DNA of 38,467 nucleotides from a virus (IMGVR_UViG_2850796239_000007:1-38467); one strand, 5' to 3'; counted from the first letter of the stretch, positions 12,775-13,085 are shown. Notes: generated from the sequence alone by a model not told the origin. Numbers and translations are program-made.

Positions 12775-12851
12775 GGCCCTTTAGCTCAGTTGGTCAGAGC
12801 GAGCGACTCATAATCGCCAGGTCGCTGGTTCAAGTCCAGCAAGGGCCACCA
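12775..12851 (+). tRNA. tRNA-Ile2-like (anticodon CAU; could be Met)
   Basis: cloverleaf with 7-bp acceptor stem, TTCAAGT T-loop, anticodon loop CTCATAA, CCA end; resembles ileX as recalled. Confidence 0.8.
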
Positions 12852-12852
12852 A

Positions 12853-12929
12853 CCACCACTAGCTCATCCGGATAGAGCATCAACCTTCTAAGTTGACGGT
12901 GCGAGGTTCGAGTCCTCGGTGGTGGGCCA
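12853..12929 (+). tRNA. tRNA-Arg (anticodon UCU)
   Basis: anticodon loop CTTCTAA, T-loop TTCGAGT, CCA end. Confidence 0.8.
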
Positions 12930-12931
12930 GC

Positions 12932-13007
12932 GCCGACTTAGCTCAGCAGGCAGAGCAACTGACTTGTAATCAGTAGGTCACCAGTTCGATTCCGGTAGTC
13001 GGCACCA
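12932..13007 (+). tRNA. tRNA-Thr (anticodon UGU)
   Basis: acceptor GCCGACT/AGTCGGC, anticodon loop CTTGTAA, T-loop TTCGATT, CCA end. Confidence 0.75.
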
Positions 13008-13010
13008 TAT

Positions 13011-13085
13011 GCGGGCATCGTATAATGGCTATTACCTCAGCCTTCCAAGCTGATGATGCGGGTTCGATTCCCGCTGCCCGCTCCA
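13011..13085 (+). tRNA. tRNA-Gly (anticodon UCC)
   Basis: acceptor GCGGGCA/TGCCCGC, anticodon loop CTTCCAA, T-loop TTCGATT, CCA end. Confidence 0.8.

Follow-up and report, generated by a model that had tools for sequence, protein, structure and literature searches.

A tRNA gene cluster between the Q region and the lysis genes

The stretch of viral DNA analyzed here, 38,467 nucleotides long (38.5 kb) and called the window throughout, contains exactly four tRNA genes according to ARAGORN, all on the plus strand, with the anticodons CAU, UCU, UGU, and UCC (Table 1). The Rfam tRNA model RF00005 covers all four at 56.4 to 70.5 bits (gathering score 29; E-values of 1e-9 to 1e-13), and such scores are far beyond chance. 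The initial annotation had proposed a cluster with these anticodons at 12775–13085, downstream of the Q region, and had named scoring as tRNAs as its check. ARAGORN returned the same coordinates, all four genes scored with both programs, and a DUF1133/antitermQ-type gene does lie upstream of the cluster. The intergenic spacers measure only 1, 2, and 3 nt, and the CCA end is encoded by each of the four genes. Under minimum free energy (MFE) folding of the single sequences, some but not all of the genes returned a clean cloverleaf, as is normal for tRNAs, and the structures were therefore judged by the covariance model rather than by single-sequence folds.

Table 1. Features in and around the tRNA cluster (positions counted from the first nucleotide of the window)
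Feature	Position	Strand	Basis
Q-like late antiterminator gene (DUF1133, weak Phage_antitermQ match)	11066..11740	+	Pfam
GC-rich hairpin with U-run, 5′ of the promoter-like site	12657..12693	+	Sequence; RNA fold z = −3.9
Sigma-70 promoter-like site: −35 TTGCAG, 17-nt spacer, −10 TATTAT	12737..12765	+	Consensus scan, conservation
tRNA-Ile2 gene, anticodon CAU, ileZ/ileX type, CCA encoded	12775..12851	+	ARAGORN; Rfam 70.5 bits
tRNA-Arg gene, anticodon UCU, argN-type scaffold	12853..12929	+	ARAGORN; Rfam 56.4 bits
tRNA-Thr gene, anticodon UGU, thrU with U16C and U20C	12932..13007	+	ARAGORN; Rfam 69.8 bits
tRNA-Gly gene, anticodon UCC, identical to host glyT	13011..13085	+	ARAGORN; Rfam 64.9 bits
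First terminator-like hairpin 3′ of the tRNAs	13344..13370	+	Sequence scan; conserved in L001
Strong terminator-like hairpin, 10-bp stem and T-run, between tRNAs and lysis genes	13699..13735	+	Sequence scan
IS110-family insertion between tRNA unit and holin gene, outside the cluster	13759..15207	−	Pfam DEDD_Tnp_IS110
Lysis cassette (P21-type holin, lysozyme, Rz); late genes 3′ of the tRNA unit	15218..16391	+	Pfam

Predicted transcription of the tRNA unit

The −10 hexamer of the promoter-like site ends 9 nt before the 5′ end of tRNA-Ile. Among 14 upstream sequences sharing less than 80% mutual identity, the most conserved columns are TTGCA and TAT.AT at 17-nt spacing, and the promoter spacer and the flanks diverge. 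The host ileX promoter has the same geometry (TTGCGA-17-TATAAT-9 nt), and we infer from this conservation that the site is a promoter. The GC-rich hairpin just upstream looks like an intrinsic terminator that would end transcription arriving from the Q region, and an equivalent terminator stands 5′ of the promoter in other cluster types. No terminator was found between the promoter-like site and the tRNAs, and the terminator-like hairpins that precede the lysis genes lie 3′ of them; therefore transcription of the tRNAs should not need Q. The arrangement, a predicted promoter 5′ and terminator-like hairpins 3′ of the unit, is at the level of pattern that of a moron.

This promoter may belong to the tRNA unit or may be the late promoter pR′ itself. 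The Stx2 phage has no other promoter-like sequence in the interval from Q to its tRNAs, and its sole strong terminator comes after argO, as the pR′ reading would have it; against it, the promoter travels with tRNA-Ile beside Q genes that differ in length and annotation. Under either reading the tRNAs lie upstream of the terminators. Another candidate for pR′, TTGCAA-17-TTCAAT at 12574–12608, was rejected; its −10 element lacks the key A at position 2 and it was not flagged by the scan. Downstream, the first 150–200 nt 3′ of tRNA-Gly are about 85% conserved in other cluster types. At 13197–13291, about 110 nt 3′ of tRNA-Gly, there is a long hairpin (stem about 17 bp) with only weak Rfam matches, to miRNA-precursor families, which reflect its hairpin shape.

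Two tRNAs of a phage lineage and two of host type

The CAU tRNA is identical to the Stx-phage ileZ at 74/77 positions, to K-12 ileY at 71/77, and to ileX at 69/77, and its sequence is the same as that of a CAU gene labeled tRNA-Ile by PGAP in RefSeq genomes. In its acceptor stem, 5′ GGCCCUU pairs with AAGGGCC 3′ and provides C4-G69 and C5-G68, the pairs by which TilS separates Ile2 from Met tRNA; the gene is of the Ile2 and not of the Met type. The UCU tRNA-Arg matches the Stx-phage argN at 64 of 77 positions, host argU at 54, and argO at 46. Since the anticodon of argN is UCG and the same scaffold bears UCU in the window, the tRNA-Arg has an anticodon switched relative to argN and would do the job of argO/argU. 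Its first acceptor pair is C1-G72, its discriminator is G73, its D-loop is AUCCGGAUA with A20, and its anticodon loop, CUUCUAA, keeps C35. The identity elements of E. coli ArgRS are A20, C35, U/G36, and A/G73, and an arginine identity of the UCU tRNA is plausible because A20, C35, and G73 are retained. The likeness of the Ile/Arg pair to the ileZ-argN type, as first annotated, is thus borne out as homology, yet it does not extend to the second anticodon.

The ileZ-argN-argO cluster of Stx phages (933W type; Stx2a_F349, AP012530) is a close counterpart. It occupies the same slot, after Q and before the late genes, with tight spacers; its first gene is the same tRNA-Ile2, its second the same scaffold, and its promoter, TTGCAA-17-TATTAT, likewise ends 9 nt before tRNA-Ile. 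The window differs in its UCU second anticodon and in having neither argO nor stx genes; Thr(UGU) and Gly(UCC) stand as third and fourth genes in place of argO (UCU). A literature search on ileZ/argN returned only unrelated matches, and one narrowed further to Shiga toxin with tRNA returned none.

In contrast to the diverged Ile/Arg pair, the other two genes are nearly those of the host. The tRNA-Thr is identical to K-12 thrU at 74 of 76 positions, the sole differences being U16C and U20C, both in the D-loop; its anticodon arm is exactly that of thrU, with the CUG/CAG motifs and the UAAUC↓A site intact. The tRNA-Gly is identical to K-12 glyT over all 75 positions. In the host both belong to the thrU-tyrU-glyT-thrT-tufB operon, and the window lacks tyrU, the 116-nt spacer, thrT, and all flanks of that operon. 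No homology to the operon was found outside the mature tRNAs; it ends at their termini. Thr and Gly had been described as additional to the Ile/Arg pair; they do stand beyond it, but they are not merely additional, being near-exact thrU and glyT copies. As a whole the cluster is a chimera, made up of a diverged phage-lineage pair (Ile2, Arg) and near-exact copies of two host tRNAs. Thr and Gly are joined by TAT in nearly every one of about 130 phage loci, and because of the uniformity of this 3-nt spacer the pair would appear to have a single origin. More than 39 phage-borne Gly copies carry a compensatory acceptor-stem pair change, C6U:G66A, which reads as selection on tRNA-Gly structure in these relatives.

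A tRNA-Thr(UGU) downstream of Q has been described before in a lambdoid phage of Shigella and E. coli, as part of the tRNA-Asn(GUU)/tRNA-Thr(UGU) pair of SfI; an Asn/Thr pair 3′ of Q is also reported for Sf6, ST64T, PS3, and P21, and ACA is over-represented in SfI relative to its host (PMC3636060). The partners differ, Asn in SfI and Ile2, Arg, and Gly in the window, a comparison made from the descriptions. A prophage order of Q followed by tRNA-Thr occurs in 646 of 5,426 E. coli genomes. It is also found in locus L145 (7540–8084 of the metagenome contig OLJY01000043.1), where the Q region (DUF1367, DUF1364, DUF1133) directly abuts a C16 tRNA-Thr that is followed by tyrU-glyT-thrT-tufB; this contig may be an assembly chimera across a 76-nt repeat or a true recombinant between phage cargo and the host operon.

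Distribution of the cluster and state of the prophage

The Thr-Gly pair with its TAT spacer is present in at least 120 IMG/VR contigs and, among species-representative genomes, in Citrobacter braakii, Enterobacter hormaechei, E. ruysiae, E. coli ECMA0423 (as deposited), and S. flexneri. The roughly 130 loci comprise Thr-Gly alone (57), CAU-UUU-Thr-Gly (38), CAU-UCU-Thr-Gly (18), and a few with odd second-position anticodons, and the second position is one scaffold with a variable anticodon loop. The window's cluster type occurs in about ten complete E. coli genomes, with a close relative in 60 of 5,426, and it is already annotated in RefSeq in those E. coli genomes and in Shigella flexneri; its existence is not new. 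S. flexneri SFBU1023 has three such clusters, which fits the higher tRNA gene count of S. flexneri 5b (97, vs. 86 in K-12; PMC1550401, PMC2617782).

Several sister clusters deserve separate mention. In L008 and L010–L136 (e.g., L008, 1595–1671) the second tRNA has the anticodon UUU on the same scaffold, with an unusual C33 and the discriminator U73; it is annotated as tRNA-Lys and is without the AriB cleavage site. Other second-position copies have the anticodon AAA or UAA, or a malformed loop, and these UUU, AAA, and UAA tRNAs could be pseudogenes, identity switches, or decoys. The cluster of E. coli CFSAN029787 differs in its Gly gene alone (L007, 1812–1886), where C35A and A38G turn the anticodon into UAC and 1 nt is deleted from the 3′ acceptor strand; PGAP labels the gene tRNA-Val, and it is probably decaying.

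Host yebY and the sRNA pair ryeA/sdsR open the window, and an integrase of the lambda type comes next. DUF1367, YbcO, and the Q-like antiterminator gene precede the tRNAs, and a trkG-like gene, terminase, and portal genes come after the lysis genes. A 946-nt isrK/C4/ORF6N module (11620–12565) stands between the Q-like gene and the tRNAs. The intact prophage of E. coli FDAARGOS_944 has a 100% identical cluster and neither this module nor the IS110-family insertion, which is missing from the otherwise collinear intact prophage L001 but occupies the identical site in S. flexneri SFBU1023. As a whole, the window was found in none of 5,426 complete E. coli genomes. Its segment 12678–15209, IS element included, is 99.4–99.5% identical to S. 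flexneri SFBU1023 and to the strain deposited as E. coli ECMA0423, and the match to SFBU1023 makes the source a Shigella-type genome. The prophage in it is lambda-like, decayed, and defective.

This decay raises the possibility that a dead prophage has left the cluster behind as cargo that is now inactive, its intact look coming only from the shortness of tRNA genes and from how recent the decay is. The prophage is riddled with IS1, IS110-family, and IS3-family elements, one of which, of the IS110 family, splits the tRNAs from the lysis cassette. A related prophage in E. coli U90, at the same attachment site, has recE and recT in its early region, and by comparison the window prophage has lost much of that region. 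Decayed members exist elsewhere, among them the Gly gene with UAC and an acceptor-stem deletion and the degenerate second-position tRNAs. The four genes, however, match their counterparts in intact prophages at 99–100% identity, the promoter hexamers are preserved, and the IS-flanked unit is kept at the above identity in SFBU1023 and ECMA0423 (as deposited), so that we regard inactive leftover cargo as quite improbable. What the decay does imply is that, with the prophage defective, any benefit to the phage is only historical here.

Other elements of the window were recorded along the way. There are three IS1 copies (6100–7024, 8659–9583, 27959–28878), two copies of the IS110-family element (the one in Table 1 and another at about 23480–24940), and several IS3-family elements (2748–3904; 32945–38138). 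Two inverted IS1 copies flank 1.6 kb with one C4/ORF6N module. The P1-like antisense module (c4-a1b1 target, isrK and C4 RNAs) occurs three times, at 5378–5566 (minus strand), 7645–7846 (plus), and 11760–11958 (plus), each time adjoined by an antirepressor-like gene (Rha/Ash at 4775–5617, ORF6N at 7766–8446, and ORF6N at 12010–12567); the third takes the place of the Q-gene end found in the intact relative. Chi sites (GCTGGTGG) number six, all on the plus strand, vs. 1.0 expected by chance (12719–12726, 17254, 19189, 20067, 21845, and 27046), and one lies 49 nt 5′ of tRNA-Ile. In other loci, a same-strand Chi within 150 nt 5′ of the phage tRNA-Ile was seen in 28 of 44 distinct upstream sequences, and a reversed one in 0 of 44. 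The early region holds the RalA antitoxin sRNA (2169–2347), known from the Rac prophage, and the SraC/RyeA and SdsR/RyeB sRNA pair (463–607) adjoins yebY at the host junction. A role of the tRNAs as attachment site was rejected; the integrase and the junction are 11 kb away, at yebY/ryeA.

Codon usage and the proposed supply of rare-codon tRNAs

E. coli core genes make rare use of the codons AUA, AGA/AGG, GGA, and ACA, which are two to nine times more common in the prophage (Table 2), and for the four codons compared between window prophage and K-12 core the Fisher p values run from 1e-8 to 1e-20. Enrichment in the phage of codons that are rare in the host, which the initial annotation had proposed to check, was thus observed. 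For a ranking, the share that each codon has within its amino acid in the prophage was divided by its share in the host; AGG comes first in the window, AGA second, ATA third, GGA fourth, and ACA eighth; in the intact prophage with an identical cluster the top six are AGG, AGA, ATA, CGA, ACA, and GGA, of which CGA is the codon read by argN(UCG). Within the window prophage, early genes are more enriched than late genes (AGA 15.2 vs. 3.1 per 1000).

Table 2. Frequencies of the four cognate codons (per 1000 codons)
Gene set	ATA	AGA	ACA	GGA
K-12 core genes (84)	2.4	1.1	5.5	6.5
Window prophage ORFs	11.6	7.4	12.5	14.4
Lambda early genes (without tRNAs)	14.6	17.3	17.4	16.0
Lambda late genes (without tRNAs)	4.6	3.6	10.1	10.1
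U90 prophage early genes (without tRNAs)	11.7	9.5	18.1	15.7
U90 prophage late genes (without tRNAs)	8.2	4.7	6.9	13.8

The codon test is passed and yet it does not discriminate, because the tRNA-free relatives lambda and U90 share the bias, which is not greater in the window prophage; therefore the bias gives no account of the presence of tRNAs in this phage. The one exception is ATA, which in late genes is about twofold higher than in lambda. The IS ORFs of the window show the same enrichment, and the codons that the cluster serves are those in demand in AT-rich mobile DNA generally. Codon usage is extreme in a potassium transporter gene of the TrkH family (trkG-like) at 16529–17986, located after Rz and before the terminase genes, with ATA 35, GGA 27, and ACA 21 per 1000.

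The explanation that we favor, with moderate confidence, is that of a tRNA transcription unit complete in itself, present as cargo between Q and the lysis genes, that supplies rare-codon tRNAs for AT-rich mobile DNA. From the genes, homologies, promoter geometry, and codon statistics observed here we infer its expression, processing, modification, and any benefit as follows. The sigma-70 promoter would give one precursor with all four tRNAs, in transcription that would be independent of Q, on in the lysogen, and stronger after induction as genome copies accumulate. Cleavage of this precursor at the 1–3-nt spacers would fall to RNase P and 3′ exonucleases of the host. Lysidine formation at C34 of the CAU tRNA by host TilS would make it an Ile tRNA that reads AUA. 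Together the mature tRNAs would boost the supply of four minor host tRNAs reading AUA, AGA/AGG, ACA, and GGA. A role in dosage fits the identity of the Gly (100%) and Thr (97%) genes to those of the host better than an altered specificity does, and the persistence of an intact tRNA unit inside an IS-ridden prophage also speaks for supply. The helper plasmids pRARE and CodonPlus offer an engineered parallel, as they provide extra ileX/ileY, argU, glyT, and thrU-type tRNAs for AT-rich foreign genes in E. coli; unlike the cluster, they are plasmid-borne constructs and also contain leuW, proL, and other tRNA genes.

A variant of the supply reading makes the host the beneficiary, the cluster being kept in Shigella to translate the AT-rich genes of the virulence plasmid. 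The 33 ipa-mxi-spa genes of pCP301 show the same codon ranking as the prophage, more strongly: relative to the core, AGA is 24 times as frequent, AGG 11, ATA 9, ACA 4, and TTA and GGA 3.4 times each, and the cluster reads five of these six top codons. The three clusters of S. flexneri SFBU1023 would also agree with such a role, as would promoter-driven expression, which by the layout of the unit should not need prophage induction. However, the same clusters are found in commensal, ETEC, and STEC E. coli, in Citrobacter, and in Enterobacter, and the codon skew is seen in any AT-rich DNA, so that the match is not specific. We consider domestication by the host very improbable.

tRNA-targeting nucleases as a possible different selective reason

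What counts against supply by rare-codon tRNAs, beside the shared bias of the tRNA-free relatives and its greater strength in early genes, is that tRNA-Thr(UGU) is a prime target of two E. coli defense nucleases (PMC12445682, PMC12409363), which offers a different selective reason. The cluster, and above all its tRNA-Thr(UGU), may replace host tRNAs destroyed by two immune nucleases active against lambdoid phages, P2 Old and PARIS AriB. P2 Old restricts lambda, is triggered by lambda Gam, and kills through cleavage of host tRNA-Thr(UGU) at paired CNG motifs of the anticodon stem, and a resistant phage tRNA-Thr(UGU) rescues from it (PMC12445682). AriB cuts Lys(UUU), Thr(UGU), and Asn(GUU) tRNAs at C40↓A41 and contacts U16, and the change U16C in E. 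coli tRNA-Lys “significantly impaired” its cleavage, an effect known for tRNA-Lys only (PMC12409363). On this account U16C/U20C would amount to a minimal change by which thrU escapes cleavage.

Several observations are consistent with such a role. Positions 16 and 20 are the only ones at which the window tRNA-Thr departs from thrU, and C16 is present. U16C is the most common change among 131 phage-borne tRNA-Thr copies, in 41 copies that are not independent events, and the cluster backgrounds in which it is seen number at least three. When metagenome contigs were scanned for C16 in the thrU-tyrU context of the host, a single one matched, and that contig has a prophage upstream flank. Four relatives combine G42C/T with U43C, so that the CNG motif is broken and the anticodon stem shortened, like those of P2 Old-resistant tRNAs. 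By our own reading of the published motif, a paired CNG motif with A37 is present in both tRNA-Thr and tRNA-Gly, and the UUU-anticodon tRNA of the sister clusters, as noted, is without the AriB site.

The same sequences also argue against it. In the window tRNA-Thr the anticodon arm is that of thrU, with both CNG motifs and the UAAUC↓A site in place, and host thrU supplied on a plasmid gave “little to no protection” against P2 Old (PMC12445682). Lytic phages do carry nuclease-resistant tRNAs (Lys, Thr, and Asn of T5 against PARIS, and a phage Thr(UGU) against P2 Old); the window shares with them the anticodon UGU and, with T5 tRNA-Lys, C16. The anticodon stems of the validated resistant tRNAs are altered, heavily so in the T5 tRNA-Thr, which keeps U16, whereas the window tRNA-Thr has the host anticodon arm exactly. 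The tRNA-Gly is identical to host glyT. Moreover, changes at positions 16 and 20 are what neutral drift predicts, both being among the sites under the weakest constraint in any tRNA. The anticodon is that of a known nuclease target in the case of Thr(UGU), and to our knowledge not in the case of Ile2, Arg, or Gly; we know of no nuclease that targets Ile2(CAU) or Arg(UCU) specifically.

Taken with this evidence, replacement of cleaved host tRNAs seems unlikely for the Thr gene, and less likely again for the cluster as a whole. More doubtful still is a specific form of the idea, in which the U16C/U20C Thr and the Gly with its Old-type CNG motif would be kept to blunt Toprim tRNases faced by Gam-encoding lambdoid phages, and the second-position swaps among UCG, UCU, and UUU would track the host tRNA under attack. 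If it were true, temperate lambdoid phages would carry minimal-escape alleles of host tRNAs.

Conclusions

Since the genomes of Stx phages and Shigella phages were sequenced, lambdoid phages have been known to carry tRNA genes downstream of Q, and the cluster in the window is ordinary lambdoid-phage tRNA cargo, with a composition that differs from the textbook ileZ-argN-argO set. To this the present analysis adds a conserved promoter with the geometry of host ileX, from which expression would be expected both in lysogens and after induction, and the finding that the usual argument from codon bias is equally true of relatives that have no tRNAs. The two changes in tRNA-Thr include position 16, recently shown to matter for cleavage by PARIS, and they provide a testable lead for telling supply from counter-defense; U16C is the only part of these findings that could surprise a specialist.
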